From Squalus acanthias (Eukaryota): a DNA stretch of 64,000 nucleotides. Positions 10,386 through 63,769 of the stretch are shown piece after piece (the stretch's first letter is position 1; every line of letters starts with the position of its first letter). The notes beneath the pieces were generated by a model. The model was given only the letters and a program-made list of their open reading frames with translations. It did no database searches and had not been told where the DNA came from. The DNA lies in NCBI GenBank assembly GCA_030390025.1, contig CM059452.1, forward strand, positions 7,874,001 through 7,938,000, written 5' to 3'. The translations under genes were made by a program, and so were the position numbers.

Positions 10386-10389
10386 TTTT

Positions 10390-12858: not shown

Positions 12859-12860
12859 AA

Positions 12861-26710: not shown

Positions 26711-27055
26711 ATTCCAGTTTCTCGATGTCCCAGGGTCCGCCTCTACAAAACTCTGCTGCCGGAGACACCATTACTTTAAACTGCGAATATTCAGGGGTCT
26801 GTCAGCACACAGTACACTGGTACCGTCAGTCCCCAGGAAAGGCTCCGAAATACCTGCTTCAGAGACACACTTCAGGAGAGGGGAATAAAGAAAACGCTGC
26901 CGGGGGCCGAATTTCTGCTTCTGTCGATGGTGCGCAGAAAATCAGCCGCTTAAACATCGCGAAACTGCAACTGAGTGACTCCGCTGTGTATTACTGTGCA
27001 CTGAGTCCGCGCACAGCACAGTGATACAGAGCACGGAGAGAGCCGTACAAAAACC
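26711..27055 (+). CDS. TRDV: Supporting TCR-delta V of NAR-TCR (leaderless; exon 26711-27016, RSS 27017-27055)
   Basis: cccgcag/phase-1 DSSFSMSQGPPLQNSAAGDTITLNCEYSGVCQHTVHWYRQ..LSDSAVYYCALSPRT. Extra CDR1 Cys, no functional leader found, perfect RSS cacagtg-23-acaaaaacc. Confidence 0.9.
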
Positions 27056-28311
27056 TGAACATGGTGGGGATTACAGACACACTGTGATACAGAGCACGGA
27101 GAGAGTTCACAAACCTGACCATGCTGGGGATTACAGACACACAGTGATACAGAGCGCGGAGCGGGAGAATAAATATTCTTCTTGGATGCATTCTCGACGA
27201 ATCTTAGAGTTTTACCCGACAGAAACAACTGATTAAGCCCATCAAGTCTACACTTTTCTTTTCGCTCCTCGCACCCTTTAATATGCCCATCTTTCGAGTC
27301 TCCTATCCAATTCCCTAGTTAAAATATTTGATGCATTTATTCCACATTTTCACTTCCTTCTGTATAAATAATTGTTTTTCTCAACTGAAACATTTATATT
27401 TTGCCGAGTGATATTTCACCCTAGGAGTTATATTTATTGTCCGCCTGTTTTCAAACGGACCAGCAGAGTTTCATCTTTCATTTTCTTTGGTTCAATCCGT
27501 CTTTCAACGCTTGGGTTGATCAGCGGTCTCCACCTCCTGGGATTTCCCGGATTTGGTGTGTAATCTGCTCAGAGATTCTCTCCGCTCAACAGGACACCCG
27601 CAGTCTGTCCGGACCAACAACCCGGCCAGCTCCCGGCTGAAGGAGTTTGGGTTTGGATTCACTGAGTTAATGACTCGGCCATGGAGGGCTGCGGCTCCCA
27701 CAATTCACAGCGGCAGGGAAAAGGCCCATTGTGACACGGGCCGCGCTGCACTCTGGGAGAACTCACCGCACATTTGCACCTCAGAAAACCTTTTAATGAC
27801 AACTTTTTTATTCTCTCCTGTGCCAGAATTTCACTTTAATCGATTAAGATCGAGCATTTATTTTGATGGAAACTGATGTAAATTTGTTTTTCAATCGCGC
27901 AGCGGTTAGACGTCACACAAACATAACCGACTGTACGTCACACAAACATGGCCAACGCCGGTTTGCCCTGCAGTTGATGACGTTATAATCCCTCAGCATG
28001 TCACAGCAACGTTATTGGCGGTTTCCCCCATTGATTCAGGGTTAGGAGATCACGGGGCGTCTCCAGCCTCCGCTCAGCGCTGAAGAGCCCCAGTTTGTGG
28101 CACCTGTGACCCCTGACTCAGTCCTATGAACCCGAGGAGTGGGCGGGGGCAGCACGGGGCCTCTTAAAGGGACACTGCACTCCATGAGAATCACCGAGCC
28201 CGGAGTCAGTGAGAGCCTGGGAACAGGGAAGTGAGACGAGGATGATATTGGAGGGGATGGCGGCCCCGGATAGGGGGAGGGGTGAGAGATTGTGGCAGAG
28301 ACGGAGTATAA

Positions 28312-28985
28312 GCACCAACTCCATACATTCCCAATCTCCCTTCAGACGGTCCGTTAATTCTTCCCTCTCTTAACCCGATGTCATGTTCAACTATAGGACA
28401 CCTCACGCCTGAATTTAAGGAGTTTCGAAGAAGAGCAGAACCGCATTTGAAGGAAAATGCCAGAAGATACTCGGGCCTGGCCACAAACCTCTGGAGATGT
28501 TCACGTGGCACGGAGTCACCGAACTAATCTGATGAGACGGTGAAGGACGTGGAGCGAAAGTTCAAGGAAACAGGGAGCAAAGATCTGAAGGTCACTGCGG
28601 ATCTCGGAGGTGATGTTCAGTGAGTTCAGGTCGATGGTATGAGAGGGAATGGAGGAAAGCAGGGAGAAAGGATCCCTGAGGTGATGTTCAGTGAGTTCAG
28701 GTGGATGATTTGAGAGGGAATGGAGCAAGAACAGGGAGAAAGGATCCCTAGGGTGATGTTCAGTGAGCTCAGGGAGATGATGTCAGAGGGAATGGAGCAG
28801 AGCAGGGAGAAATGTCGTCAGGGAAACAGGAGACAGAGGGCCAGGGTGAATGGGTGTGGCTGAGATTGAAGAAGGCTTGGAAGTGGTTACCCCAGTGCTG
28901 GGCCTACTTTGCTCCTTTGGTCTGTGTGGACCATTTGAACTCGGGTCTCCTTTAAAGGGGCGATTCCAAAACAAAAATATATTCC
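28312..28985 (+). repeat. Unclassified ~670-bp element with internal ~70-bp repeats; inverted diverged copy at 48635-49891
   Basis: Colinear match by eye from caccaactccat..cattcccaa to ggtctcctttaaaggggcga..ccaaaacaaaaata. Confidence 0.8.
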
Positions 28986-29404
28986 ACTAGTGCCCACCCG
29001 AGAGGAGGGCTCCACTCGCACACTTGGCCTGAACAAAACTAAAATTATATTCCATTAGAATTTGATTTTGTCACAACCTTTATCGAGTTGTGCTCACTGG
29101 ACGCAGAAGGCTCCAAATGTGTCTGTGGACACCGCGCGATCCCTCATCTCCTCTCCCTCAAATACAGTCCAAAAGCTGGAGAGAGGCTGTGTGTCAGATA
29201 GGCCCCAGGCTCTGGGAATCATCCCCAGGGTTTGTGCTTCCTGGTGCATCTGTGTCAGATATCTATCCCGTGATGTCCCTGCCCTGGGAGTGATTGATGG
29301 GACAGTGGATAGGGACCTTTACTCTGTATCCAACCCGTGCTGTATCTTCCCTGGGAGTGTTCGATGGGATAGTGTAGAGGGAGCTTTACTCGATATCTAA
29401 CCTA

Positions 29405-29453
29405 TCTATCCTCGACTACTGGGGACTAGGCACCATGGTGACGGTGATTGCAG
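29405..29453 (+). pseudogene. IGHJ: Ig heavy-chain J segment lacking its RSS
   Basis: SILDYWGLGTMVTVIA followed by a phase-1 gtgaga donor (WGxG motif). Upstream sequence is satellite, with no heptamer or nonamer. Confidence 0.85.
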
Positions 29454-29548
29454 GTGAGAACCATTCACTCTTTCAGTAACTGCTGTATCTGTGTCTTTAT
29501 TTTATATTTCTGTTTCTTTCAGCAATTCATTCATTCACTGAAACTTGT

Positions 29549-30770
29549 GTTCGCTGGATTCTGTATTGAGATTTTTTGCAATGCTTCATTTGATTCTGCT
29601 GAAAAGGGTTCATAGAATTAAACTGCTTCTTCCGAAAAATATATTGTTGTGGGATTGAGCCCCTGATTGATGTGATTTGGTGTTTATCTGCTGATGAGAC
29701 TGTGCGCCTGGGGTTACTTTAAATACCCAACGGTTGTTGAACTGTTTGGCTATTCTACAATGTTTAATCTCGGTGACATCTAATGGTTGCAGGTTTTCTG
29801 ATCAAATGTAAACATTTATGTGACTAAATGTGTTTGAAATAAGATTGTAGGCAGAAAATAGAAACTTTAGCGGTCAAAATAATTTAAATATATTTTGACG
29901 TATTTCTATTTGTGATATTTACATTGTCATTTATTAATCTAATGTCCACCAACGGTCATATTCAATACGTGAAAAGTTAGTGTAATTAATAACTAAATAA
30001 TTAATAAATTTGTTGCCTAAATCAGTTTTAAATTAATATAAATTAAATTAATTTATTGTAGTAATATCACCCAATATTACAATAATATGCTATATCAATA
30101 TTAATTTATTAAACATGATCCGTCTACTCACAATTCCGCTGTCATTATTTTATATTTATGTTTATTTCAATAATTAATTCGTTCAGTGATAGATGGGTTC
30201 GCTGGATTCTGTATTGAGATTTTTTTGCAATGTTACATTTGATTCTGCTGAAAGGGTTTATAGAATGAAGCTGCTTCTCCACAAAACGTTCTGTTGCGGG
30301 ATTCAGCCCCTCAGTGATGTGATTTGCTGTTTATCTGCTGAGGAGAGTGTGTGCCTGGGTTACTTTGAATAACTAAAGTTTGTGAAATTGTTTGGCGTTT
30401 CTGCAATGTTTAATCTCGGTGACATCGAACTGCTGCAGGTTTTCTGATCTGTTTAAAACTGTCTGAAAGATGATTCTAGGCAGACAACAAGTAGGTTTTA
30501 TAAATCATAAATCGTTTAAAAATAATTTAATGCATCTTTCTATTTAAGTGAGAGTTGCAGATTCAACTATTAATATATGGTTTACGGTGCTCACATTTAA
30601 TAGGTAAATTGTTACTGTAATTATGAATTATATAATAAAAAAATTCAGGTTGAAGGAGAATGAAATCAATATAACTCAAACGATTATAATGCGGTAATAT
30701 TGCCCAATATCACTCAATATGCTGTAGTATTAATATTAATGTATTAAACATTATTCGCCTTCCAGAATTC
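29549..30770 (+). repeat. ~650-bp tandem duplication in the AT-rich JH 3' intron
   Basis: gttcgctggattctgtattgagattttt starts at both 29549 and 30197, with colinear downstream sequence. Confidence 0.8.
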
Positions 30771-32989
30771 TGCTCTAAACTGGTCACAATTAACGTGAGC
30801 GGAGAATTTTAGAGGCTGGAGACAATTTCTGATTATGTCTGAAATTATTTTAATAACAGCAGACTGATTCCACCGCAGTGTTCAGGTTAATGAGGGTTTG
30901 AAATTAATTGTTATCTCCCTGTTTCACACAGATGAATGACGGATTGTATTTAATTATGCATTAAATGCGAGTTGTAAATAGAAGTTTGTAAATGTAATAA
31001 ATCTGCCGGGTTATTAAATTCTTACTGTGCAGCGGAAAGCATGTTATTCCTTCAATATTATTTGTTGTTTGATAGCGAGACAATTATCACTAAACTAATC
31101 TTAAACAGTTTGTAAGATCATGGGCTGAGCGGTCGCTGGCAGTCAAAGAATTGTTCATATGATTCTATTTAAATTCAAGGAAAGTGCAGACTGCGTAAGG
31201 CTGGCGACACACATTGACATTCAAGCAGATTAATTTAATTACGAAAGGTTAATATTAGTTTTGAATTTAACAACAACATCCTGTCTCCTCTAACGGTGCT
31301 GTTTACGGGATAGAATTATAGACAATGCACAGATTACATCAGAGAGTTATGTTTAATTCTCATTAATACCAAATTGATCAACAAAATCTCGCCTCCATTT
31401 GCTCATTAAATTTCAGTGTCGCAGATGGTCTGATTGATTTGTTCTCGGGCAGTTTTACACTGATCATTCTGGAACTGATTTTCAATAAATAGCAGAATAT
31501 ATTTAATAATTAATTTACCGGCATTGTGTGAATTACGGGAGTAAATATAAAAAGATTGCCTGTGTTATTAAACAGCGGAGGCTCTGTTACTGACTGCAAA
31601 CTGGCCGGTTGTCTTTTAATTCATGAAAATAGTTTTTCTAGTTAAGATTGAGGACAATGTTTCAGCTCGAGAGCCCTGCTTTAGTAAACACACGGTGTTA
31701 CAGTCCATTGGTAGTTAGTGAGATGTGACCATGGCCAGACTTTGAACTATTTAAATAGTCCACTCCTAAATCCATCATGTGAAATCCACTCTGAGAAAAG
31801 ATGGAGTTTCTGTTGTCTCAGAGAGTTCAGAAACATGCAAAGTTTACAAGTGTGTAGATAGAGAGCGGGAATGTATTAGAAGTTAGTGACCATTTTAACT
31901 TATTCAAATGTGATTTGATTTAAGTAAAATTAATATATTTTTCTGAATGCCTTTATCTATTAATATGATTCTTAATATTTTAATATTGATAAGTGTCATG
32001 TTAATTTAATTGAAACCCTAATAGTTCACAGGTTACCAGGCAGAAACAGGTTTAAAATTAATTTTACCTAATTTTATTATAATCCAGTGTAACATCAGAT
32101 AACATCAAAATTAACTTAGAGTATAATATCAGTGTGAATTTATTAAACATAAATAAGCTCCCACAATTGCTTTGTATACTGAACAGGGTTATAGTTGCTG
32201 TAAAATCTCAAGGGTTGGAGAGAATTTTAAATTTTGTCTAAAATTAATTTAAAAACAATACATGTCTTAATCAGCTGTGCTCAGCTCGAGAAGGTGTCGC
32301 CGCAGATCTCAATGTGTTTTGCCTCAATGATTTTCCAGGTTATATTTAATTATGAAATTATATTAACCCAGTGGGTAACCGGTTTTTTGAAACAAGATGG
32401 CTCCTGGGCTAGCAGCTCCCTAGGGAGTTGCTTTGCCATCCTTGGCCATCCGTTGCCATCCTTTGCTCTGTTTCCCCCAAGTCTCCTCTCTTCTGCTGTT
32501 TAAGTACCCCTGGCTCTAATAGTGGGTGCATTTTATCCCTAACTGCAAGTCCAAGCTGCAAGGTTAAAGTTACCTGAGCCCACTGCCCATCCCCCGACCA
32601 TGCCTGTTCTTTGTTCTCAGTGAGCACTGGCTCTTCACTTAAACTTCGCTCCCAAATTCCCAGACCTCTCTGCCGTCAAGACTATGCTTCTCCACTAGAC
32701 TAGTGATCTAGTGACGAGTGGATCGCGAGTGGAGTTCGGGGCCAGGGATCGCGAGAATATCAGTACTAATTTGATCCTGTGAGAGACAACATCATTCATG
32801 TCCGAGGCCGGGACCCAGGAGCGAGGACGAGCCCAGCAGCGATATCAAGGCCCAGGAGTGGCGCAGCGTGGACCAGCAGCAGGATCGGGACCCAGGGAAG
32901 GTGCGGCACAGGCCAACAGCGAGGTCGGGAGGAACACAATGCATCCTACGAAACCCAGGCAGAGAGGACCTGCGGGAAGGAGGGAGGAG

Positions 32990-35900
32990 GACAGTAGCAT
33001 TGTTTGTGTGTGTGAGCTAGGCCGTTGTAGCAGAGCCTGGTTTCCAATCGTCTTGGATCCCCTTGCCATTGGACCAAGACCTTGCTCTGTCAAGCCCGTG
33101 AGGTAGCTGGTGTGCAACGGCCACCCCACATTAAAATAATTCACGCACAGGCAACTTCCACCCTTTAAAATGAAGTTCGGGACCTGGAACGTAAGGACCC
33201 TCATGGACAACCCCAACAGTGACAGACCGGAACGCCGTACTGCTATTGTTGCCCGGGAGCTCAGACGTTTCGACATTGACATTGCCGCCCTAAGCGAGAC
33301 CCGGCGGGCAGGGGAAGGCTAGCTCAAGGAGCAAGGCGGTGGCTACACTTTCTTCTGGAAAGGCAAACCTGAAGAAGAATGCCGCCTCCATGGGTTAGGC
33401 TTCGCTATAAAAAATGAACTGGTTGAACGTCTCAGAGACTCCCCTTGTGGAATAAACGAGTGCACACCCTAGCCCAGAACCAGTGCGCTACGGTCATCAG
33501 TGCGTACGCCCCAACACTGGAAGCCACAGACGAGACCAAAGAGCAATTCTACTCCAGCCTCGAACAATCCTTTTCCCGAGTCCCAACGGGCGACAAGCTA
33601 ATCCTCCTTGGCGACTTTAACACCAGAGTTGGAAAGGACACAGACCTCTAGGGAGGTGTGATCGGCAGAGAGGGGATAGGGAAAGCCTACTCCAACGGTA
33701 CGCTTCTCCTGTCGAAATGCTTAGAACATCGCCTTGTCATAACCAACACCTTGTTCCGTCAGAGAGACAAGTACAAGGCTTCATGGCAGCACCCTCGCTC
33801 CAAGCACTGGCATCTGCTGGACTACGTCATCGTCTGAGCGAGGGAGCGCAAGGACGTCTGCATCACCCGCGCCATGACAGGAGCTGACGACTGCTGGACA
33901 GACCACCGCCTAATCCGTTCTGTCATCTCCATCAATGTAGCCCCAAAACAGCGGTGGCAACAGAAACAATGCTGCAGGAAAATCAACGCTGGAGCACTCA
34001 AAGACCCCGCTAAGAAGGCTCTATTCAGCCTGCGCCTCACAAACAACCTGACGACTCCCAGTGATGCAGAGACACTGAGTGTCCACAGCGCCTGGTCTGC
34101 ACTCAAGGCCTTCATAATCAGCACCTGTGAAGAGACGCTCGGTCACTCGACCAGGAAACACCAAGACTGGTTCGACGAGAACGACCAGGACATCCAGCAG
34201 CTCATAAGCCCCAAGAGCAAGGCATTCCTGATCTGGAAACAGCAACAGAACTCGAAACCAAGAAAGCAGCTCTACAGACCTGAAGGCCGAGGTCCAACAA
34301 AAAACTCGCGACCTAAAGAACAGATGGTGGGTGGAGAAAGCGCAGGAGATCCAGCAGTTAGCCGACAACCACGACGTGCGCGGATTCTTTAGCACAGTCA
34401 AGACCATCTATGGCCCAAGCACCCAAGGGCCTACCCCACTGCGGGCCAAGAACGGAGAAGCAGTCAGTGCCCGCTGGAAGGAGCACTTCGAAGATCTCCT
34501 TAACCGAGACTCTGTCTTCGACACAAGTGTCCTCAACTCCATCCCGCAGCATGCTACCCGCCACCATCTCAGCACAACCCCAGCCCGGCATGAGGTTGAA
34601 AAGGCCATCCGACAACTAAAGAACAACAAGGCCTCAGGAGCAGATGGAATCCCCGCCGAGGCACTAAAGCATGGCGGAGAAGCACCATTGGCGCGAATTC
34701 ATGAACTCATTTTTCTTATCTGGAAGGAGGAGAGCATGCCAGGGGATCTCAGAGACGCCGTAATTGTGACCATCTTCAAGAAAGGTGACAAGTCCGATTG
34801 CGGTAATTACAGAGGAGTTTCCCAGCTGTCTGCCACAGGGAAAGTCATCGCAAGAATCCTCCTCAATCGTCTTCTCCCAGTGGCCGAAGAGCTCCTCCCA
34901 GACTCGCAATGCGGATTCCGCCCACTAAGGGGCACAATGGACATGATCTTCATCGCACGTCAATTACAATATGAATGCAGGGTACAGCACCAACCGCTGT
35001 ACATGGCCTTCTTTGATCTCACAAAGGCCATCGACACTGTCAACCGTGAGGGATTATGGAGTGTCCTCCTCAAATTCGGCTGCCCTCAAAAGTTTGTTAC
35101 CATCCTCCGCCTGCTTCACGACGACATGCAAGCCGTGATCCTGACCAACGGATCTACCAGAGGCCCAATTCACGTACGGACCGGGGTCAAGCAAGGCTGT
35201 GTCATCGCACCAACGCTCTTCTCGATCGTCCTTGCTGCAATGCTACATCTCACCCTCAGTATGCTCCCCGCTGGAGTGGAGCTAATTTACAGAACAAACG
35301 GGAAACTGTTCAACCTCCGTCGCCTCCAGTCCAGATCCAAGGTCGTCCCATCCTCTGTCGTCGAATTACAGTATGCAGACGACGCTTGCATCTGCGCTCA
35401 CTCAGAGGTCGAAATCCAAACCATCGTCAACACCTTCACCGAAGCTTACGAGAGCATGGGCCTCACACTAAATATCCGTAAGACCAACCTGCCCCCGCCA
35501 CACAGTACTGCCCCCCGATTATCAAAATCCACAACAAGGCATTGGACAACGTGGACCACTTTCCATATCTCGGGAGCCTACTGTCAACAAGAGCAGACAT
35601 CGATGCCGAAGTCTAACACCGCCTTCAGTGTGCCAGTGCAGCCTTCGGTCGCCTGAGGAAGAGAGTGTTTGAAGACCAGGACCTCAAACCCGGCATTAAG
35701 CTCATGGTCTACAGAGCAGCAGTGATACCCGCCCTGCTGTATGCCTCAGAGACATGGACCATGTACAGCAGGCACCTCAAAGCACTGGAGAGGTACCACC
35801 AACGCTGCCTCCGCAAGATCCTACAAATCCATTGGCAGGATAGGCGCACCAACATCAGTGTTGTCGCTCAGGCCAACATCCCCAGCATCGAAGCTTTGAC

Positions 35901-36354
35901 CATGTTCGATCAGCTCCGATGGACTGGTCACATTGTCCGCATGCGCGATACGAGACTCCCGAAACAAGCGCTCTACTCGGAGCTCCGACACGGCAAGAGA
36001 GCCCCAGGTGGGCGGAAGAAACGCTTCAAGGACACCCTCAAAGCCTCCTTGAAAAAGTGTAACATCCCCATCGACACCTGGGAGTCCCTGGCCCAAGATC
36101 GCACAAAGTGGAGGAGAAGCATCCGAGAAGGCGAGGAACACCTCGAGTCTCTTCGCCGGGAGCAAGCGGAAGCCAAGTGCAAGGAGCGCACGTCAACCCA
36201 AGCACCTCACCCACCCGCCCCTTCAACCACCGTCTGCCCCACCTGTGACAGCGACTGTAGGTCCCGCATTGGACTCATCAGTCACCTGCGAATTCATTTT
36301 TAATGTGGAAGCAAGTCATCCTCGGTTCCGAGGGACTGCCTAAGAAGAAGAAGA
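32990..36354 (+). mobile_element. Near full-length RTE-clade LINE, with stops and frameshifts
   Basis: APE start MKFGTWNVRTL at 33170, LGDFN and WTDH motifs, RT with GVKQGCVIAPTLF and QYADD, C-terminal CPTC..H..H finger, (aag)n tail. Confidence 0.92.
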
Positions 36355-36954
36355 ATCGGTTTTCAATGTAAATGTCTCCTGGTTTGTTAAATTCTTGCTC
36401 TGTCACGGAGTCCCTGTTATATGCAGCAAATTACCCTGGAATGTGAATTATTTCCGTAAACTTTTTTCAGGGAATCGAAATCTTACTCGGTTTGTAAGAT
36501 TGTAGACAGGGAGGGAGAAATGGTTGGAAGTCGAAGTGAGTTTTTCAAATTAATATCAGTTTACTTTCATAAAACGTGCAGATTTGAGGTGGTCGGAAAT
36601 TGACAAGAGATCAATTAGAAATCAGCTTCATAAAATTGACAGATTGAAGAGATCTATCTGCCGAGAGCACGATTGTTGCACCGTTTGTGTCTGTTCTGTT
36701 TCTGTGCGGCTGCTCACTGTGTGAGAATCAAGAGTCCGCCTGAGTGTTTGTAAACCTGCTGGTTTGTTCTCTTGTGTTTCATGGAGTACAATTCGACTCA
36801 TTTATTTCAGAAGTTTGTACCTGTGAGAAATGCGATAGTGTGACTTTAAGTTTCAGGAGGCGCTTCCGATTTGGCAACAGTACCCCAGTTTGTGGCATTC
36901 AGAAGGAGGAATTCAGAAACACTTCTGGCAGACTGTAGAAGGAAATTTAATCAG

Positions 36955-37480
36955 TTTTACCTGCCCTGGGAGTGTTTAATGGGACAGTGTAGAGAGAGCT
37001 TTACTCTGTATCTAATCTGTGTTGTACTTGCCCTGGGTGTGTTTGACGGGACAGTGTAGAGGGAGATTTACACTGTATCCAACAAGTGCTGGACCTGCCC
37101 TGGCAGTGTTTGATGGGACAGTGTAGAGGGAGCTTTACGCTTTATTTAACCCGTGCTGTAACTGACCCGTGACATTTGATGGGACAGTGTGGAGGGGGCA
37201 TTTACACTGTGTCTAACCCATGCTGTACCTGGCTTGGTCGTGTTTGACGGGACAGTGTAGATGGAACTTTACTCTGTTTCTAGCCCGTGTTGTACCTGCC
37301 GTTGGAGTGTTTGATTGCGCAATGTTGATGGAGCTATACTCTGTATTTAACCATTGCGGTACCTTACCCGGAGTGTTTGACAGTGCAGTGTAGACTTGGC
37401 TTTGCTCGGAATCAATACCTTGCTATACCTGACCATACAGCGCATGGCAGGGCAGTGGATAGAGAGCTTTAGTCTGTATT
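36955..37480 (+). repeat. ~65-bp satellite (ctgccctgggagtgtttgatgggacagtgtagagggagctttactctgtatctaacc..), about 8 copies; 2 copies also at 29270-29403
   Basis: Tandem degenerate repeats visible in the sequence. Confidence 0.85.
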
Positions 37481-38579
37481 ATCTGTAAATTAACAGACCT
37501 GAGAATACTTTGTCTCGCGTTGCTCAAGGAATCTTAATCTGCATCCAACGAATAAAATGTGACTTCTCCAGCCAGATATCTAAAAATAAAACCCGGGATG
37601 AGAGGCTTCAGTTATGTGGAGTGATTGGAAAAGCTGGGATTGTTCCTTAGAGCAGAGAAGGTTAAAGGGAGACCTAATAGAGATGTTCAAAATTGTGAGA
37701 GGTTTTGTCAGAGCAAGTCGGGAGAAACGGTTTCCTCTGGCGAGTTGGTCGATAACCAAAGGCCACAGATTTAAAATAATTGCCAAAAGAACTAGAGGAG
37801 AAATTAGGAGATTTTTTTTCAAGCAGAGGATTGTTAAGCTCTGGAATTCACAAGACAACTAACTGGTCAAGTACTTGACCAGTAAAGTGTCAGTTCTCGA
37901 ACCACAGATATATAAAAATAAAACTTTCCATTGCTCCGATGAAACAGCCGTGCATTAATTGAGTTTAACCTTATTCCAAAAATAATGACTGCCCACATTT
38001 TAAAGAATCGATAAACTTTAAACATTTTGAGTGTCAGATAATGATTGAATGAGATTGGCCTGATCCTGAGCTCACTTTCAGAACAATCAGTTTCAGGAAG
38101 TGACGGTAACGCTCCAGAAAGCAGCGCCTGTTCTGATCTGATGGGAGGCTGGAAGTTATTTTAAGAATTTAAATGGAGAATGTCGAGACTCCAGCTCCAA
38201 ATAACTATTATGGGAACATTATGTTTGAAAGCATTATTTCGTTCAATTGTTTTTTTAAAAAGGTAACAGGCAGGGACAAACTCGGGTGAGGTGCAGCTAT
38301 TGGACTGGGTCACAGCACAAGGCTCACAGTCACTGAGCCGCACCTCTGTGAAACATTTAAAGAGCAACAGTCAGCCTGCGATGAGTCGTCATTCACAATA
38401 AGCTTTAAGACTCTGTGACGGTATCCGATTAAATCATTTGAGTCAAATTCCTCAGTTCCTTTATTTTAAATATCCTCTTGTATTATAACAAACAATAAAA
38501 TAGATCTGATAGAGGTGTTCAACATTATGAAGCGTTTCCTTCCATTAAATCGGGAAGAACTAATTCCGCTGGGCCGTGT

Positions 38580-39460
38580 AGAATCACAGAATCTCAGAGC
38601 ACAGAAGGGGCCATTCGGCCCGTCTTGCCTGTGCTGGGTCTGAAAGAGCTGTCCAATCAAATCCCAGCTTTTTCCTCGTAACCCTCCACTGAGTCCGCTT
38701 CATGTCCAGTTGCCTCGTGCATTCCAGAAATTAACAACCCTCTGTTTGAAAAAACAAATGTCCCCATTTCCCCTCTAGTTCTTTTGCAAATTATTTTAAA
38801 TCTGTGAAAATTGGTTACGGACCTACTCGCCAGAGGAAACCATTTCTCCCGATTTGCTCTGACAAAATCTCTCACAATTTTGAACACCTCTATTATGTCT
38901 CCCCTTAACTTTCACTGCTCTAAGGGACAATCTCAGTTTTTCCAATCTCTACACAGAACTGAAGTCTCTGATCTCCGTTATCATCCTGGTCAACCTCTTC
39001 TGTACCCACTGCAAGGCCTTTTCATCCTTCCTAAATTGTGGTGCCCAGAATTGTAAACACTACTCCAGCTGATGCCTAACCTGTGATTTGTAAAGGTTTA
39101 GCATGACTTCCTTGCTTTTTGTATTCAATGCCCCTTTTACAAATCCAAGTATCCCACACACTTCCATAACCGCCTGATCAACTTGCCCTGCCACCTTCAA
39201 AGGTTTGTCAATATGTGCCCCCAAGTCCCTCTGCTCTTACACACCCCTCAAAATAGTGACAGTTAGATTATACTGTCTCTCCTTGTTGTCCCTCCCAAAG
39301 TGCATCACCTCACACTTATCTGCATTAAACTGCATCAGCCACATGTCTGCCCATTTCACCAGTCTGTCTATGTCCTCCTGAAGTCCGCTGCTATCCTGCT
39401 CACTAGTAACTACCTTGCCAAGTTTTGCATCATTCGCGAACTTGGAAACTGTACTCCCTA
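38580..39460 (-). mobile_element. CR1 LINE fragment (related + strand fragment at about 37590-37855)
   Basis: LQEDIDRLVKWADMWLMQFNADKCEVMHFG motif. Confidence 0.8.
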
Positions 39461-39894
39461 TAAACAAGTCCGCCGCGACCGGTGGGCGCCGCGGGGGCTG
39501 GAGTGCATCGTCACCCCAGACTACCAAATTTTAATTTGATTTGTTAAGTTTCCTTTAAAGTTTTATTTAGTTACAGATAATTGATTGGTTTACATCAAAA
39601 TAGTAAGAAGAGTAAAACAAGGTTACACTGCAGTAGGAGTAAATTGGCACAGCAGGCAGTGGAAACCAGTTTTCTAATCAATCAGCAGGGGTGACTCATT
39701 TGGCTGTAAACAAACAAACAGTATAAACAAGTCCAGGTAATTTATATATAAAACCGGAAAAGCAATGGTCCAGTACCGACCCAAGGAATCCCACTGCATA
39801 CTTATCTCCATTCTGAAATACATCCGTTCACCACAACTCTCTGCCTCCTCTCCCTCAGCCAATCACATACCCAAGCTACCTCCGTCCCTTCACA

Positions 39895-40174
39895 GAATCA
39901 CCGAATCCCCACAGTGCAGATAGAGGCCATTTCGGCCCATCGAGCCTGCACCGACACATATCCCTAACACTAAGGGTCAATTCATCATAGCCAAATCAAC
40001 CTAACCTGCACATCTTTGGACTGTGGGAGTAAACCGGAGCACCCGGAGTGAAACCCACGCAGACACGGGGAGAATGTGCAAACTCCACACAGACAGTCAC
40101 CCGAGGCCGGATTCGAACCCGGGTCCTTGGCGGTGTGAAGCAACAGTGCTAACCACTATGCCACCGTGTTGCCC
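39895..40174 (-). mobile_element. V-SINE (HE1-like) tRNA-derived SINE
   Basis: Reverse strand reads gggcaacacggtggcatagtggttagcact..gggttcgaatcc..ggagtttgcacattctccccgtgtctgcgtgggtttc (V-domain). Confidence 0.85.
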
Positions 40175-41800
40175 TTAACCCCATATGCTTCTACTTTCCG
40201 AATAAGTATTTTATGAGATACTTTATAAAATGCCATTTGAAAGTCGATGTGTACAACGTCTATTGCAACACCATCATCAACCCTCTCTGTTACTTCACAG
40301 TGTGGACCGAGCTTTCAGTATCTGACCAATAAGCCACAGGTGATTGAGTTATCAGCACAAACCAAAAGCCAGAGATTCCCACATCAGCAGTCAGCACATG
40401 AGTTACTATTTGTCCTTCCTTGCAGACTACCGCTGATATCCAGTCGATTTATAATGTTTAAGGATTGCCAATATTAGATATTTAGTGAAGAAACCTGTCC
40501 CGATGTTTAGATTATTTTCGGTACAAACAGCAACAAGAAGTGACTGTAACGACCCAGGAAGCAGTGCCTGTTCTCACTGGTGGGAGGGTGGAAAGTAATT
40601 TGGAAAATGCAATGGAGAATTTAAAGAACATCGTTCCATATAACCGGCTTTGAGAATCGTATTTAATTCGGATTATTTAATTGAGTGAGTGGGAGGAGGG
40701 AACTCAGGAGACATCCATTCAGTAGAATGGGATAGAGCACAAGTCACACTGCATCGCTCTTTCTCCAATTCTGAGAAGGAAAGAGAGAGACTCGAATCAA
40801 TCCCGATTCATCTAAAGCTTGAATCTTAGAAACCCGGCTGTGCAAAAGTTCCCTATTCAAATCTGTGCGCTATATTATTCCGTTCACATTTTAAAGGAGA
40901 CTTCAGCTATTTATTGTAAACGTCCTTTATTGTCGTGGGAACAAAAAAGATTTAGAGGAGGTCTGATAGAGGGGTTTGGAATTATGAAGGGATTCGGGAA
41001 ACATATTTCCTCGGGTCGGTGAGTTGGTGAGTAAATGGCACTAATTAAAATCAGCAGCAGCAGAATAATGGGATAGGCTATTGTTCTACTTTACTACACA
41101 GGGGGTTGTTAGGACATGGGATGTCCTATCAGAAAGACGGCTGCATACAGAATCCGTAATAGCTCGATAAAATTGAACATTTGAGAAGAAGATTGGGAAT
41201 TCGAAGGAGCACGAGATTGGTGGAGAGATCTTTTCGAGGCGTGATTGGCCGAATAGATTACTTCTGGGCTGTAAAGATGTATGACTTTATAATTCTGGGT
41301 CATGCTCTATAAAGACGCTGTAAACACATTTTAAAGGTAATACAACTAGTAGATCTAGCTGTAGGAGTTGTGTGACTCTTCTGATAATTCAATTGCTAAC
41401 TTCACTAACAAAACACTCTGGGGCCCGAAATGATGCATTGAAGGGGAAGGTGGATGAGTCAATGAGGGAAAAAGGAATAGAAGGATATGTTATTAGGGTT
41501 AGATGAAGTAAGGTGGGAGGAGTCTCGTGTGGAACATAAACGCCGGCATTGACCAGTTGGGCCGAATGGTCTGTTTCTGTGATGTAAATTCTATATAATT
41601 TTCCAGTCCAACTCTTTAAGCTCCCAGAGAGAAGGATTGAATGCCCCTCTGCTCCGGGCTGGAAAACCGGACAGGACACAGAGGGGAAAAGGGAATCCTT
41701 TAAAATTCAGTGCAAAGCACATTTCTCTCACATCGAACCGCCGGTTTCATTTTCTCTGGAATTCTCCAGTTTATTGACCTTTATTGTAATTGTTCTGCAG

Positions 41801-42191
41801 CAAAGATCCGCGGGAACCGTCCGTGTCTGTCCTCCTGCCCCCGGCAGAAGAAGTCTCCGCTCAGAGGTTCTTCACCCTCACCTGCTTAGTGAGAGGTTTC
41901 TCCCCCCGAGAGATCTTCGTCAAGTGGACCGTCAATGACAAGCCGGTGAATTCCGGCAACTACAAGAACACCGAGGTGATGGCGGAGAACGGCAGCAGTT
42001 CCTTCTTCATGTACAGCCTGTTATCCATTGCAGCGGAGGAGTGGGCCAGCGGCGCTTCTTACTCCTGTGTGGTGGGACATGAAGCGATCCCCTTGAAGAT
42101 CATCAACAGAACGGTTAATAAATCCAGCAGTAAACCCAGTTTTGTCAACATTTCCCTTGTTCTGATGGACACCGTCAATTCTTGTCAATGA
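41801..42191 (+). pseudogene. IGHM: IgM heavy-chain last constant domain (Cmu4) plus secretory tail; acceptor out of standard phase
   Basis: [85 protein letters not shown]. Tail has an NxS site and penultimate Cys; internal phase-1 donor at 42130. Confidence 0.9.
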
Positions 42192-42219
42192 GAATCTCTC
42201 GATTGCATTTCAGGACTTG

Positions 42220-42235
42220 AATAAAAACCAATAAA
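42220..42235 (+). terminator. Secretory-form polyadenylation signals (two aataaa)
   Basis: aataaa at 42220 and 42230, just after the secretory stop codon. Confidence 0.75.
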
Positions 42236-42619
42236 GGCCTTTTCTTCCAATCGTCAGTTACACACACAGCCGCTCAATTAATTTTGTTTCCCATTTTTGC
42301 CAAGGGGAGGGCTGTTTATCTGAAGCAGGATATTTGCCGGTCTCGGGCCGAAGGCTTGTACAGTCACCGCTCCCAGCTCATAAAAACCACGGGTTAGAGA
42401 CAGACTGAAGCTCAAATGACAGGATTTCTCAAAGTCACTTCAGCAACTTTCCTCCCGCTTGGGGAATCAAAAAGTTCCGATTTCAGACAAACAAACGCAG
42501 CACATTTAGATCTCGGTGTCCCTGTTTCTCGTGTTGTCCATCCCTTCAGAATTGGGGTCAGTTTTATTTTGCAGCATCTCACCCTCTGGGATCTGAAATA
42601 AGGCCACTGAAGAAACCGA

Positions 42620-45280
42620 ACTGTACCCCCACTCCCCCACCAGAGAGAGAGGAAAGGGCAATTGATAAACCACTGTACCTCCCACTCCCCCACCAGAGAG
42701 AGGGGAAAGGGCAATTGTTAAACCACTGTACCTCCCACTCCCCCACCAGAGAGAGGAGAAAGGGCAATTGTTAACCCGCTGTACCTCACACACCCCACTA
42801 GAGAGAGGGGAAAGGGCAATTGTTAACCCACTGTACCCCCCACTCCCTCACCAGAGAGAGGGGAAAGGGCCATTGTTAACCCACTGTACCTCCCACTCCC
42901 TCACCAGAGAGAGGGAAAGGGCAATTGTTAACCCACTGTACCTCCCACTCCCCCACCAGACAGAGGGGAAAGGGCCATTGTTAACCCACTGTACCTCCCA
43001 CTCCCCCACCAGAGAGAGGGGAAAGGGCAATTGTCAACCCACTGTACCTCCACTCCCCCACCAGAGAGAGGGGAAAGGGCAATTGTTAACCCACTGTACC
43101 TCCCACTCCCCCACCAGACAGAGGGGAAAGGGCCATTGTTAACCCACTGTACCTCCCACTCCCCCACCAGAGAGAGGGGAAAGGGCAATTGTCAACCCAC
43201 TGTACCTCCCACTCCCCCACCAGAGAGAGGGAAAGGGCAATTGATAACCCACAGTACCCCCACTCCCCCACCAGAGAGAGGGGAAAGGGCAATTGTTAAC
43301 CCACTGTACCCCCCACTCCCCCACCAGAGAGAGGGGAAAGGGTAATTGATAACCCACAGTACCCCCACTCCCCCACCAGAGAGAGGGGAAAGGGCAATTG
43401 TTAACCCACTGTACACCCCACTCCCCCACCAGAGAGAGGGGAAAGGGCAATTGTTAACCCACTGTACCCCCACTCCCCCACCAGAGAGAGGGGAAAGGGA
43501 AATTGTTAACCCACTGTACCCCCACTCCCCCACCAGAGAGAGGGGAAAGGGCAATTGTTAACCCACTGTACCCCCACTCCCGCACCAGAGAGAGGGGAAA
43601 GGGCAATTGTTAACCCACTGTACCCCCACTCCCCCACCAGAGAGAGCGGAAAGGGAAATTGTTAACCCACTGTACCCCCACTCCCCCACCAGAGAGAGGG
43701 GAAAGGGCAATTGTTCACCCACTGTACCCCCACTCCCCCACCAGAGAGAGGAAAGGGCAATTGTTCACCCAATGTACCTCCCACTCCACCACCAGAGAGA
43801 GGGGAAAGGGCAATTGTTAACCCACTGTAACCCCCACCCCCTCACCAGAGAGAGGGGAAAGGGCAATTGTTAACCCACTGTACCCCCCACTCCCCCACCA
43901 GAGAGAGGGGAAAGGGCAATTGTGAACCCACTGTACCTCCCACTCCTCCACCATAGAGAGGGGAAAGGGTAATTGTTAACCCCCTGTACCCCCACTCCCC
44001 CACCAGAGAGAGGGGGAAGGGCAATTGTTAACACACTGTACCCCCACTCCCCCACCAGAGAGAGGGGAAAGGGCAATTGTTAACCCACTGTACCCCCCAC
44101 TCCCCCACCAGAGAGATGGGAAAGGACAATTGTTAACCCACTGTACCTCCCACTCCCCCACCAGAGAGAGGGGAAAGGGCAAATGTTAACACACTGTACC
44201 TCCCACTCCCCCTCCAGAGAGAGGGGAAAGGGTAATTGTTAACCCACTGTACCCCCACTCCCCCAACAGAGAGAGGGGAAAGGGCAATTGTTAACCCACT
44301 GTACCTCCCACTCCCCCACCAGAGAGAGGGGAAAGGGCAATTGTTAACCCACTGTACCTCCCACTCCCCCACCAGAGAGAGGGGAAAGGGCAATTGTTAA
44401 CACACTGTACCCCCCACTCCCGCACCAGAGAGAGGGGAAAGGGCAATTGTTAACACACTGTACCTCCCACTCCCCCACCAGAGAGAGGGGAAAGGGCAAT
44501 TGTTAACCAACTGTACCCCCACTCCCCCACCAGAGAGAGGGGAAAGGGCAATTGTTAACCCACTGTACCCACACTCCCCCACCAGAGAGAGGGGAAAGGG
44601 CAATTGTTAACCCGCTGTACCTCCCACTCCTCCACCAGAGAGAGAGGAAATGGCAATTGTTAAACAACTGTACCTCCAACTCCCCCTCCAGAGAGAGGGG
44701 AAAGGGCAATTGTTAAGACACTGTACCCCCACTCCCCCACCAGAGAGAGGGGAAAGGGCAATTGTTAACCAACTGTACCCCCACTCCCCCACCAGAGAGA
44801 GGGGAAAGGGCAATTGTTAACCCACTGTACCCACACTTCCCCACCAGAGAGAGGGGAAAGGGCAATTGTTAACCCGCTGTACCTCCCACTCCTCCACCAG
44901 AGAGAGAGGAAACGGCAATTGTTAAACAACTGTACCTCCAACTCCCCCTCCAGAGAGAGGGGAAAGGGCAATTGTTAACCCACTTTACCCCCACTTCCCC
45001 ACCAGAGAGAGGGGAAAGGGCAATTGTTAACCTACTGTACCTCCCACTCCCCCACCAGAGAGAAGTGAAAGGGCAATTGTTAACCCACTGTACTCCCACT
45101 CGCCCACCAGAGAGAGGGGAAAGGGCAATTGTTAACCCACTGTACCCCCACTTCCCCACCAGAGAGAGGGGAAAGGGCAATTGTTAACCCACTGTACCTC
45201 CCACTCCCCCAGCAGAGAGAGGGGAAAGGGCAATTGTTAACCCACTGTACCCCCACTCCCCCACCGGAGAGAGGGGAGGT
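42620..45280 (+). repeat. 53-bp minisatellite, about 50 copies
   Basis: Unit gggcaattgttaacccactgtacctcccactcccccaccagagagaggggaaa (52-53 bp variants). Confidence 0.97.
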
Positions 45281-45599
45281 GAACCAATCTCTATTACATG
45301 AACTCAGCTGCCATCAGTAAAAAGTCAGCTTTAACTCACAGTCTAAAAACGTTAAAGTTGCCGGATGAGAATCACATTGTAAAATAAATATTTATTCAAC
45401 AATTTATCTTTAACTAGTGTTTGGAGTAAATCTGTCTCTGTTATTCATAAACTAACAGATTGAATTTTAATAGTCCAAATTTGAACTGGTGATTGAATCC
45501 TCTGCGGGTTTCTCACGGTTGTGTCCCTGATGGTTTGAGGCCCATCAGCTGACGTCACATTGCGTCTCACACAGAACACATTTACACAGAGCGGGGAAG

Positions 45600-46420
45600 A
45601 ATGCGTGTAAAGTGAGTGTGTCTGTGTTTATGTGTCAGTGCGTTTGCGATTTTGTGTAAGTGTGTGTGTTTATGTGTAAGTGCACACTTACACATAAACA
45701 CACAAAGGCTTACATATAAACACACACATTAACACATTGACACAGAATATTACACATACCCAGAATATAATACACACCGTCATTGTCAGACCCAGTTATT
45801 GGTACTCGCTGAAACTTTGAACAGCACCGGAAATACACACACGCACACCCTTGAACAAAGCACACACAAACACATGCATTAACACACACACTTACACTTA
45901 CACACCCATAAACTCACACATCAACATAAACACACACATACAAACACACACACTTACACAGAAACACTCACACGCCTACACCTAAACATACACAAAAACT
46001 TACACATAACATAAACACACATATGGACGCACATACACAAAAACAAACACACACTTAAACATAAACACACTTACAAATAAACTGACACACAAACACACAC
46101 ACACAATTACAAATAAACACACACACTTATACAAAGACTTACACATAAACATACACAAACTGACAAAAATACACGCACACTTACACATAATCACACACTT
46201 ACACATAAATACACAAATATAGAATTACACAAACACGCAAACTTATACAGCAACACACACATTAACACACAAACACACACACAATTACACTTGAACACAC
46301 ACACACTTACACATCAACACACACACAATTACACTTGAACACACACATTAACTCACAAACACAGACTAAAACAAAACAAGAGATTGTCATACACACATAC
46401 GCAAACACGAATGCGCGAAA
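45600..46420. repeat. Degenerate (CA)n-rich low-complexity tract
   Basis: acacac/ttacac-rich sequence. Confidence 0.85.
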
Positions 46421-47052
46421 AAACCTCAGGCTATAGACGAATGTAGAATTAAAACGCACTTTTTGAACGAACACCGTTTCCAACGATTGTCCTGAATGAA
46501 TAATTATTGATTCCATAACATCTCACCTTTCTCTATTCTGGTCCTACACATACACTGAATCAATGTTCTTGTTGGAAACTGATACAAGTTAATTATGTTC
46601 AGAGCATTACCATAACAAATAAATAAACAAGATTATAACTCACATCTGATCTCTTACCCAGCCCCCTTGACAGTCTTCAAATCAGTAGCTATCTAAACCT
46701 ATCGTTAAAATAATCGATATCAATCAGTAAACCTCCCTCGATATTTCATCATATTATCCCCGAATCATCGATTGTACGAAATTGATGCAAAATCAATCAG
46801 AGTGTGACATTGAAGAAAAAACTGTCATTTTTTCCAACACGGACTATAGGAGGATCATAAAGGAAGAGCGACTGTGGAGTTAGGAACAGAGATAGATTGC
46901 TGAGAGTGATTAACTTAACACAAGATATACTTTGAAAATTAAATTAGAGAACAAACTAATACCGTAAGGAAAAGAAGGGAATATATAATAATAATATGAT
47001 ATCTTGGATTAATAAACGATCTGAATATATTTCCGCCTCTACATCCCCGTAG

Positions 47053-47180
47053 ATTCCTCAGACCACATCTTGATTGAAGACTATGAGGAAGCGAGCGGCA
47101 ACATCTGGACAACCGCTTCCACATTCATCATCCTGTTCTTCCTGAGCATGGCCTACAGCGCTGCCATCACTCTAGTGAAG
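47053..47180 (+). CDS. IGHM: IgM transmembrane exon TM1
   Basis: ag/xSSDHILIEDYEEASGNIWTTASTFIILFFLSMAYSAAITLVK/gtgaga. Ig CART motif; in phase with the Cmu4 internal donor. Confidence 0.92.
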
Positions 47181-47320
47181 GTGAGAAGATTCAATCCTCT
47201 CACACTTCGATCTGACTGAAGCGGTTTGACAAATCTCTAAAAGTTTGATTGATAAAAACCCTGAGATAAATGCCCCAAACCACTAAATCTCTGCTTCATT
47301 CTTTTATCCCTCTTTTACAG

Positions 47321-47329
47321 ATCAAGTGA
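47321..47329 (+). CDS. IGHM: IgM transmembrane exon TM2 (IK*), giving a KIK cytoplasmic tail
   Basis: tcttttacag/atcaagtga; aataaa near 47392 and at 47773. Confidence 0.85.
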   Translation: MK

Positions 47330-48789
47330 ACGGTTGAATTTCGGACGCCGTGGATTTTCCTCATCTGTTTATTAACATCTCTGTGTCCTGAAAATAAAAT
47401 ATACCCTCTTGGTGATTCTCAGAGTCAAATGTCTTCAGCTAATAGATCCGAATCTGTAGCTGAGAAAGTCATAACCGGGATTTCCGTCTCTCTGTTTGAA
47501 ATGTGTGAGATAATCGTGGCTATAATGTAAATGTATCTTAGAGTTTCACCGTTATTTGAATATTTCATGTGTAAATAAGTCACTTTTCTGGTTCCCAATT
47601 CACAATTGTTCCCTTCCCTTTATGTTGAGCCCCTGGTGTCTGTTACAGTTGTACAGATAACTGGCAGCTCAGACCGCCTGTGTTCTGGTCTCAATGTGAC
47701 GCTCTGCTGTTATATTCACTTTGTGTTAACTTTTTAAAAACTTCGCTGTAAATTGTTCTCTGTGAAATTATTAATAAATCTGGAATTACAAATGAACTAA
47801 CTTGGACTTTGCTGAATTCCTTTCTCCAAGGCTCCTCCACACCGCTCCATTTTCCCTGTCACACTTTGTTTTATTTCCCTGACAGGTATTTTTCACCCGT
47901 CCTGTCTGGGTTGTGTTTGAACCCAAGTCCCTTCGGTTAACGAGCCATTGCGCCACCCAGTGTTTCATCAGAGTAACGACACCTTTACTACTGCCTTTTC
48001 ATGTCAAGACCCAGAGGCGGAATGACTGCACAGCGACCAGGCGCACCTTGAAGTCCATTCTCACATTATGGTCTGTCACATTCACATGCCAGGTTCTATT
48101 AATGAGCAGGGTTCTGCTCCATCACAGCCTGATACAGTACAGTACATGGCAGAGTAAAGCTCCCTCTACACTGTCCCTACATTACAACAGTGACTACAAT
48201 TCAGAAAGTCCTTCATTGGTTGTGAAGCGCGTTGGGACGTCCGGTGGTCGTGAAAGGCGGTATATAAATGCAAGACTTTCTTTCTTCTTTATTTCCCATC
48301 AAACATGCCCAGGGCAGGTAGAGCACGTGTTAGATATCTGACACAGGCACATCGGGGAGCACAAACCCTGGGATTAATTCCCGAAGACTGGGCCTATCTG
48401 ACGCACAGACTCTATCGCCATCTGTTCTCTTTAAACACACTCAGACACCCAAGGCAGAGAGGAAAGAAGGAGAGGTTGTATTTGAGGGACAGGCGATGAG
48501 GGATCCCGCGGTGTCCACAGGCAGTGGGCTCTGCTGGATACAGCTTGTGTGATAGACCAACAAAATCAAATTCTGATGGAATATCATTCCAGTTTGGTTC
48601 AGGCCAAGTATGCGAGTGGAACCATTCACGATAGAATGTATTTTTGTTTTGGATTCGCCCCTTTAAAGGAGACCCGAAGCCAAATGGTCCACACAGACCA
48701 AGGAGAAAATTGGGCGTGACTGGGGTAACCACTTCCAACCCTTTTCCAATCTGAGCAACACCCATTTACCCTGACCCTCTGTCTCCTGT

Positions 48790-49440
48790 TTCATAAGCAC
48801 ATAAAAACATAAGAAATAGGAGCAGGAGTGGGCCCTTTGGCCCTTCGGGCCTGCTCCGCCATTCAATAAGATCATGGCTGATCTTCGACCTCATCTCCAC
48901 TTTCCTGCACTATCCCCATATCCCTTGATGCCCTTAATATTCAAAAATCTATCAATCTCGGTCTTGAATATACTCAATGACTGAGCCTCCACAGCCCCCT
49001 GGGGTAGAGAATTCCAAAGATTCACAACCCTCTGAGTGAAGACATTTCTCCTCATCTCAGTCCTAAATGGCTGACCCCTTATTCTGAGACAGTGACTCCT
49101 GGTTCTAGATTTCCCAGTCAGGGGAAACATCCTCCCTGCATCTACCCTGTCAAGCCCTGTAAGAATGTTGTATGTTTCAAAGAGATCACCTCTCATTCTT
49201 CTAATCTCTAGAGAATATAGGCCTAGTCTACTCAATCTGTCCTCATAGGACAATCCCCCCATCCCAGGAATCAGTCTGGTGAACCTTCGTTGCACTCCCT
49301 CTATGGCAAGTATATCCTTCCTTGGGTAAGGAGACCAAAACTGTACACAATACTCCAGGTGTGGTCTCATATATAATTGCAGTAAGACATCTTTACTCTT
49401 ATACTCAAATCCTCTTGTAATAAAGGCCAACATACCATTT
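48790..49440 (-). mobile_element. CR1 LINE 3' fragment inserted into the unclassified element
   Basis: ORF 48891-49502 is a CR1 RT C-terminus; its flanks rejoin to match the 28.8 kb sequence. Confidence 0.9.
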
Positions 49441-50047
49441 TCCCTGACGACATTTCTCCCTGCTCTCCTCCATTCCCTCTTGTACGATCTACCTGAACTC
49501 ACTAAACATCACCCCAGAGATCATTTCTCGCTGCTCTCCTCCATTCCCTCTGATACCAACTCCCTGAACTCACTGAACATCACTCCAGGGATCCACCAGT
49601 GACATTCAGACCTTCGCTCCCGGTTTCAGTGAAGTTTCGCTCCTCCTCCTTCACCGTCTTATCGGATTCTTTCGGAGTCTCCCAGACACGTGAACATCTC
49701 CACCTATTTCTGGTCAACCCCGAGTATCTTCTAGAATGTTCCTTCTACTGGGGCGCTGCTTTTCCACGAAACTCCCCAAGTTTAGGCGTGAGGTCTCTTG
49801 TGGTTGGATAGCACATCGTGTTAAGGGAGGGAAGAATTAGCGGCCCTTCTGTAGGGCTCGGAAGTAAGTTTGGGAATGGATGGAGTTGGTGTTTAAACTG
49901 TCCCTGCCGCAGTGAAATAAAAAGGAATTTCACCTTAATTTATATTGAGAAATATAATGGCGGATTGACCACCGCCCTTTGCCTGAACTGGTCGTTTTCG
50001 GAACCGATTTGCTGTCACCCAATCTACCCAGGCTTAGCTCAGAGAGG

Positions 50048-63757: not shown

Positions 63758-63769
63758 ACCTGAGATAAG

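Follow-up and report, generated by a model that had tools for sequence, protein, structure and literature searches.

An internally deleted IgM heavy-chain relic behind a NAR-TCR cassette of Squalus acanthias, probably a stage in the erosion of co-duplicated clusters

Shark IgM heavy chains are encoded by miniclusters of the form VH-D1-D2-JH-Cmu1-4-TM, i.e. V (variable), D (diversity) and J (joining) segments followed by four constant exons (Cmu1-4, or CH1-4) and the transmembrane (TM) exons, and partly germline-joined forms are included among them (PMC5192425, PMC2193156). In the elasmobranch antigen receptor complex (AgRC), T-cell receptor (TCR) V exons lie between immunoglobulin (Ig) heavy-chain clusters (Flajnik et al. 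2025, PMC12227049). The analysis presented here concerns a stretch of 64,000 nt of Squalus acanthias (the window; positions 7874001-7938000 of contig CM059452.1, abbreviated C29), in which an IgM heavy-chain relic stands behind a NAR-TCR cassette. NAR-TCR is a doubly rearranging TCR-delta, in which a new antigen receptor (NAR) V-D-J is followed by a supporting V-delta with its own recombination signal sequence (RSS) (PMC6795676, PMC5931798, PMC12227049). The published AgRC, as far as the available parts of the account go, has IgM miniclusters interleaved on both strands with TCR alpha/delta V genes and NAR-TCR, and the same was found here. For the great white shark, table S1 of that account shows alternating NARTCR, TCR V and IgM models, with the entries 'IgM (missing V)' twice and 'IgM pseudo?' three times, germline-joined NARTCR and one model marked 'NARTCRdV (part of above IgM?)'. 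Positions below refer to the window unless prefixed C29.

The relic fits an IgM pseudogene of the AgRC: it originates from the local IgM family, is disabled and lies among TCR V genes. Unlike the shark IgM minicluster, it is devoid of VH, D, RSS and CH1-3 and can neither rearrange nor encode a heavy chain. It resembles IgM1gj of the nurse shark, an expressed gene with a joined VDJ in which only CH2 is missing from the germline (PMC5192425), in lacking constant-region sequence in the germline, but it has lost the V and three exons. From the usual NAR-TCR, as described in the excerpts available, the cassette differs in its germline-joined tip domain and in the IgM relic behind V-delta. IgNAR has been proposed to derive from a NAR V moved onto an IgW cluster (PMC12227049). 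The window shares with IgNAR, so far as that source describes it, that Ig constant exons follow a NAR V(D)J downstream on the same strand; unlike in IgNAR, these exons are of the mu type and are separated from the NAR V(D)J by a V-delta exon, and no joined transcript or protein was found. The layout of the locus is already published in the AgRC account, and compared with the parts of it at hand the new detail is at the level of single bases: a conversion tract, and a nested erosion series linked to the NAR cassette in which two junctions have been mapped. No description of such a NAR-linked IgM deletion series was found in the literature searched, though nurse shark TCR-delta studies may describe IgM remnants.

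Structure of the relic and its deletions

JH, Cmu4, the secretory tail, TM1, TM2 and the polyadenylation hexamers were located where the initial annotation of this DNA had placed them, all on the plus strand like the NAR-TCR cassette. The existence of an internally deleted IgM heavy-chain gene, a relic, collinear with and directly behind this cassette was thereby confirmed. JH, the J-C intron, Cmu4, the tailpiece, TM1 and TM2 were 90-98% identical to complete clusters, several of which have a V-D, D-J or VDJ join. Cmu4 is a C1-set domain with human IgM Cmu4 and its tailpiece among the best solved relatives, and the secretory tailpiece ends in a penultimate Cys. No N letters occurred in the window or in any other stretch read. 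The RSS consensus, the exon-phase rule and nonsense-mediated decay were taken as general background.

The missing CH1-3 exons had also been remarked upon, and a tBLASTn search bore this out, as the genome's own CH1-3 were not found in the 64-kb window. TBLASTn and BLASTn of the whole window with CH1, CH2, CH3 and VH of the same genome gave only cross-matches to CH4 and to the 3' ends of TCR V. Twenty paralogous stretches upstream of CH4 were compared; CH3 lay at most 10 kb upstream of CH4 in all of them and CH2 in 19. Alignment of the relic with the J-C intron of complete clusters (about 90%) held as far as 41375 and was taken up again from 41374 within the CH3-CH4 intron. Of the 20 paralogues, 14 aligned on both sides, and in these the sequence between the two points comprised 4.3-6.8 kb (median about 4.9 kb) and contained CH1-3. 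The junction showed a GA microhomology (2 nt) and no RSS. It was also observed at C29 9.053 and 8.060 Mb (three copies in all, 94-95% alike), and a 341-nt contig of DNA run X4 bridged it with 17 differing letters, i.e. as a sister allele. A single deletion at 41374/41375 thus removed about 4.8 kb including Cmu1-3. The distance from JH to CH4 was 12.3 kb in the relic and 12.2-12.3 kb in two complete clusters, this normal length being due to LINE-type (4 kb) and 1 kb insertions that offset the deletion. By these alignments, the 12-kb gap is an ordinary J-C intron plus a long interspersed nuclear element (LINE), not foreign DNA.

The 5' end of the relic is missing as well. BLASTn revealed no VH upstream of the relic JH in the window; instead, an inverted IgM 3' flank stands there, and JH is fused to a 67-bp minisatellite closing a 2.3-kb inverted copy of the flank that normally lies 3' of TM2. 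This headless 5' junction was common to five copies (94-96% alike), all of which have NAR V, NAR J and a supporting V-delta upstream on the same strand. Of 25 JH contexts compared (30 loci examined), the five headless ones had no JH heptamer, while it was present in the other 20. Of the components of a functional IgM minicluster, the relic lacks VH and D with RSS, JH with a 23-RSS or in a germline join, and CH1-3. Only a few bases separate the break from the JH heptamer border, and the sister clade is D-J joined. Ordinary germline joining that removed the RSS before the deletion would fit as well as a RAG cut at JH; a search of the 67-bp minisatellite for a cryptic RSS, to which a JH cut by RAG could have been joined, gave none that was convincing. 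That the headless state arose by simple inversion of JH-TM was rejected, since the full 3' flank recurs after TM2 and neither a JH signal end nor a VH follows. The flank at 48294-49911 is a diverged inverted repeat (about 80%) of 28300-29300.

The relic had been described as free of internal stops, which holds for the open reading frame; the Cmu4 exon, however, lacks 1 nt at its acceptor and has A in place of the G that precedes the membrane-form donor. The 1-nt deletion at the start of CH4 was seen in one of the 30 copies matching the acceptor pattern (34 examined). The in-frame phase-1 acceptor is absent, and a weak AAG at +5 alone restores the frame. Cmu4 of the window shows the replacements V25F and G111S, of which G111S also alters the -1 base of the TM donor (42129); this G to A change was confined to the window copy (one of 34), while TM1 and TM2 are intact. 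All five headless modules carried at least one lesion in the assembly. Besides the CH4 frameshift and the TM donor of the window, these were loss of the secretory stop in two modules, a +1 shift in CH3 in one, a -1 shift in NAR V in one and Y55D/G85S in one. The TM1 donor was dead in one copy retaining TM exons only.

A comparison of nonsynonymous and synonymous rates (dN/dS, omega) had been suggested with the initial annotation. Private CH4 changes of the three deleted copies comprised 10 replacement and 3 silent changes (omega about 1.0; frameshift left out), compared with 15 replacement and 10 silent changes in the 29 other copies (omega 0.45), a non-significant difference (p 0.47); for TM1, changes were too few to estimate. 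Sites distinguishing the two deleted sisters from standard clusters showed that the window is of the deleted type at 57 of 58 positions before the junction and at 8 of 8 from the junction to 41440, while it is of the standard type at 36 of 38 positions between 41464 and 42276. This pattern points to a conversion tract or crossover across CH4, which would account for the clean appearance of CH4 in the window. Between relic and standard copies, the TM1-TM2 intron differed at 0-3 of 130 positions and TM1 at 0-4 of 128, compared with up to 55 of 563 in the upstream intron. The uniformity of this non-coding intron indicates homogenisation, not coding selection, around TM.

A probable erosion series behind the NAR-TCR cassettes

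The relic had initially been taken for the result of an Ig-cluster invasion; a lone invasion of a TCR array is not supported by its surroundings. In the 160 kb viewed, there are complete IgM clusters at 59 kb upstream and 50 kb downstream, separated by TCR V blocks. In alternation with TCR V genes, no fewer than 31 copies of the IgM C region are spread over 4.3 Mb, with clusters every 50-100 kb. This count is a lower bound, based on the 40 best CH4 matches, 30 of which lay on C29 at 5.97-10.27 Mb on both strands, plus one further copy found separately. Four other clusters that were read were all complete in C, and three of them were partly or fully germline-joined. IgM within the V array is the rule at this locus.

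The supporting V-delta was present in 18 full-length copies, 16 of them on C29, and the DNA 3' of these 16 copies was compared. A same-strand IgM remnant was found behind 12 of the 16 cassettes and formed a nested series: two headless copies retained JH-CH1-4-TM, three retained JH-CH4-TM (the window included), four had only TM1/TM2 on the same strand and three only the post-TM flank. One further cassette stood tail-to-tail with an opposite-strand cluster, and three showed no IgM exon in the 14-17 kb read. In one TM-only copy, two TM pairs, one on the minus and one on the plus strand, are retained at a distance of 4 kb, the outcome to be expected from deletion of the middle part of two head-to-head clusters. 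In a tree of 29 JH introns (one of the 30 loci was dropped as too short), the five headless copies formed one clade (100/98), inside which the three CH1-3-deleted copies were nested (100/98). The remnant varied even among the four C29 cassettes with the germline-joined NAR V of the window: the window retains CH4, the cassette with a 100% identical NAR V retains TM only and two have no IgM exon. The cassette nearest in supporting V-delta (99% in NAR V and V-delta) likewise has no IgM exon.

We conclude that the relic most likely (probability about 0.8) has no function and represents one stage of a process in which IgM clusters co-duplicated with NAR-TCR cassettes were eroded step by step. What the data show is both junctions and the copies that share them, the nesting in the tree and the lesions; from these, an order of events may be reconstructed. 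The ancestor would have been a NAR-V-delta cassette standing tail-to-tail with a minus-strand IgM cluster, which was followed by a plus-strand cluster. A deletion from the 3' flank of the minus-strand cluster to JH of the plus-strand cluster would then have left a headless JH-Cmu1-4-TM, with five descendants, and a microhomology-type deletion would have removed CH1-3 in one sub-lineage, with three descendants. In the window copy, CH4 would subsequently have been overwritten by a conversion tract from a standard cluster, before new lesions arose, while parallel deletions may have left TM alone or the flank alone behind other cassettes.

Several points weigh against this history. The copies of the 3' flank are 15-20% apart, so that the tail-to-tail ancestor must be old and the second step is a reconstruction, and the tail-to-tail cluster at C29 7.49-7.55 Mb is itself damaged. 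By Fisher's test, the omega contrast was not significant (p 0.47, or 0.27 when one broken copy was left out). In eight of nine relics, TM1 is open and has both splice sites, same-strand TM exons are retained in 9 of 16 cassettes, and NAR J is frame-compatible both with TM1 and with an AAG five bases inside CH4. The single-base lesions are known from the assembly alone and might be assembly errors. As debris, the relic is of modest importance, in that it offers a base-level view of co-duplication, deletion and re-homogenisation of IgM clusters and NAR-TCR cassettes. Given deletion plus re-homogenisation, open reading frames at this locus are no sign of function.

The NAR-TCR cassette and alternative readings

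The cassette in front of the relic has the arrangement of a NAR-TCR, i.e. a NAR V-D-J followed by an in-frame supporting V-delta with a 23-RSS. Its V-D-J join was bridged by contigs of DNA runs X3 and X4 (two labelled organisms) with one differing letter each, and the GT..AG joint from leader to V was present in a contig of run X15 from a related animal. A private V-to-D change was found in the hydrophobic core of the joined NAR leader (one of 13 leaders read). The junction of NAR V to V-delta at 26711 matches the V-V junction in gene models of other sharks, and NAR V would be spliced to the supporting V-delta as in any NAR-TCR. The unrearranged supporting V-delta terminates at a stop codon within its RSS. 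Before V-delta joins D-J, read-through RNA would therefore stop at this codon, and RNA spliced onward from the JH donor would probably be degraded as a premature-stop transcript. C-delta was found only on scaffold C911, whose start also bears IgM exons and the same TCR V families. At the ends of the V array on C29, neither a gap nor a C gene was observed.

The initial annotation had proposed that the acceptor and polyadenylation sites of the relic, as the first available ones downstream, could end or capture RNA of the joined NAR V until V-delta rearranges. Read-through from this constitutively open exon into the V genes downstream would be limited in this way. Such a role is unlikely. The relic does lie on the same strand with polyadenylation hexamers and TM splice sites retained, its intact JH donor could allow germline NAR-V-delta RNA to splice onward to CH4 or TM1, and 9 of 16 cassettes retain same-strand TM exons. 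Neither set of sites is, however, the first available one: the in-frame V-delta acceptor at 26711, 4.1 kb from the NAR J donor, comes earlier, and ahead of CH4 there are 17 AATAAA and, by a crude count, 44 acceptor-like sites. Capture by CH4 was not supported either, as the ancestral CH4 acceptor is out of frame with NAR J and leads to a stop after 29 codons. Among the four C29 cassettes with the joined NAR V only one keeps CH4, while two have no IgM exon and one has TM only, which speaks against a terminator. Seven of the 16 cassettes showed no same-strand exons in the stretch read, and the loss of TM last would be the geometric outcome of deletions with a fixed left end.

It is very improbable that a chimeric receptor is arising at this locus, in which NAR V(D)J skips V-delta and is spliced onto IgM constant exons (CH1-4 in two sisters; CH4 or TM elsewhere). 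Its product, which we consider just as doubtful, would be a membrane receptor, either heavy-chain-only or with one domain, and would parallel in the present day what has been proposed for the origin of IgNAR. In nine cassettes, deletions appear, from the gene order, to have set a rearranging or pre-joined NAR V(D)J before VH-less IgM constant or membrane exons. All junctions are in phase 1; joining of NAR J to TM1 and TM2 would yield an open product of 172 aa, and joining of NAR J to CH4 via the AAG at +5 one of 256 aa, and two sister copies have CH1-4 at a distance of about 15 kb behind NAR J. It has been proposed that NAR V was transferred between TCR and an Ig cluster (PMC12227049), and the great white model 'NARTCRdV (part of above IgM?)' in table S1 of that account points in the same direction. 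On the other hand, each of the two sisters with a full C region has a frameshift in the assembly, located in CH3 and in NAR V respectively, and the window copy has frameshift, donor and leader lesions. None of the 60 longer NAR V homologues joins Cmu; their C domains are of the TCR-delta type, with about 30% identity to Cmu. A retained CH1 needs a light chain, which likewise counts against such a receptor.

Contigs labelled RNA showed ordinary IgM CH3-CH4 joints, and at the CH4 acceptor the matches listed from two RNA-labelled sets had CH3 ends and no NAR J or JH end. The private CH4 letters of the window appeared neither in the RNA-labelled sets nor in two DNA runs, so that these contigs are uninformative on the window copy. 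Among the contigs on the joined NAR exon, no loose end was listed behind NAR J; the lone RNA-labelled run had three contigs. For the joined NAR V, no RNA data set was listed as containing it, which does not count for or against its expression. The scenario that NAR J skips V-delta to give NAR-Cmu or NAR-TM receptors, an IgNAR-like isotype born on IgM in which loss of CH1 confers light-chain independence, has very little probability in our view. If chimeric transcripts do exist, they would represent a new antigen-receptor form. The geometry proposed for the origin of IgNAR, a NAR V(D)J ahead of a headless Ig constant region, arises spontaneously here, and this makes the hypothesis testable.

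It is extremely unlikely that the deletion and the position of IgM next to NAR are assembly artefacts, produced by mis-joining or collapsing clusters that are 90-98% identical: although the locus is highly repetitive and the switch of site type at 41440-41464 could be a mis-join of two copies, the 5' junction recurs in five copies (94-96% alike) and the deletion junction in three (94-95%) with a consistent tree, a contig of an independent DNA run bridges the latter, and the stretches read contain no N.

Features of the window and of the surrounding array

Table 1. Features of the NAR-TCR cassettes and the IgM relic in the window
Feature	Position	Strand	Remarks
Unrearranged NAR-TCR cassette	17462..18765	+	Leader, V with 22-RSS (17943), D with 12-RSS (18335), J with 23-RSS (18717)
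Leader of germline-joined NAR V	22076..22118	+	
Germline-joined NAR V-D-J exon	22266..22607	+	Open; phase-1 donor (22607)
Supporting V-delta exon	26711..27055	+	23-RSS; first in-frame acceptor downstream of NAR J
60-bp tandem repeat	27017..27161	+	Unit corresponds to V-delta RSS; 3 heptamer units
Inverted copy of IgM cluster distal 3' flank	27170..29402	-	Ends in 67-bp minisatellite fused to JH
JH remnant	29410..29453	+	No RSS; splice donor intact (after 29453)
IgM J-C intron	29454..41374	+	About 90-93% identical to complete clusters
LINE-type insertion (4 kb)	about 32375-36376		In J-C intron
67-bp minisatellite	36958-37479		In J-C intron
Deletion junction (CH1, CH2, CH3 lost)	41374..41375		GA microhomology; common to 3 copies
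Tract with standard-cluster diagnostic sites	41464..42276	+	Putative gene conversion or unequal crossover
Cmu4 exon and secretory tailpiece	41801..42191	+	
Two AATAAA of secreted form	42220..42235	+	42220, 42230
53-bp minisatellite	42620..45277	+	51 copies; CH4-TM intron
TM1 exon	47053..47180	+	Open; both splice sites intact
TM2 and 3' untranslated region	47321..47778	+	3 codons (47321-47329); AATAAA at 47393 and 47773
Direct copy of IgM 3' flank	48294..49911	+	

The germline-joined NAR V occurred in five copies with 94-100% identity (window; C29 6809171, 8596517 and 8200390; C3620:38584), and two extra Cys were found in complementarity-determining region 1 of its closest copies. The joined NAR V-D-J directly follows the unrearranged one (17462-22607), and no V-delta separates the two. 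Judged by this order, the upstream NAR J donor would meet the acceptor of the joined NAR V first and would give a NAR-NAR-V-delta chain, an arrangement like that of the model 'V(gj)V(gi)V' listed for the great white shark in table S1 of PMC12227049.

The tandem repeat of the V-delta RSS comprised 3-78 heptamer units across 16 cassettes (e.g. C29:8205300-8211000); the spacer was shortened in most units, while some retained a full 23-RSS, and additional arrays could be observed at C29 6.065-6.083 Mb. These repeats could be RAG decoys or a deletion hotspot.

TCR V segments of many families were found on both strands at 1-15000 and 50000-64000 of the window, several with stops or frameshifts. The V block at 53-63 kb was found again, its order unchanged, upstream of the cluster at 9.59 Mb, indicating that V blocks were duplicated together with IgM clusters. 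Two IgM clusters (L029, C29 5961352; C29 7839516) had a VH of a different family with 66-69% DNA identity to the others. The minus-strand cluster at C29 7.498-7.516 Mb (L182/L145) had a CH4 lacking its 5' 30 nt, with a frameshift and loss of the tail Cys, and a second TM1 copy. At C29 7697900-7699100 (L162), a minus-strand NAR V and J had a VDJ-joined IgM cluster as their tail-to-tail neighbour, and a supporting V-delta was absent between them. Diverged CH1 copies (88-91%) were detected 6 Mb past the array (C29:16641980) and on contigs C988, C130, C449 and C559, and several small contigs repeated the IgM-TCR V-NAR layout.

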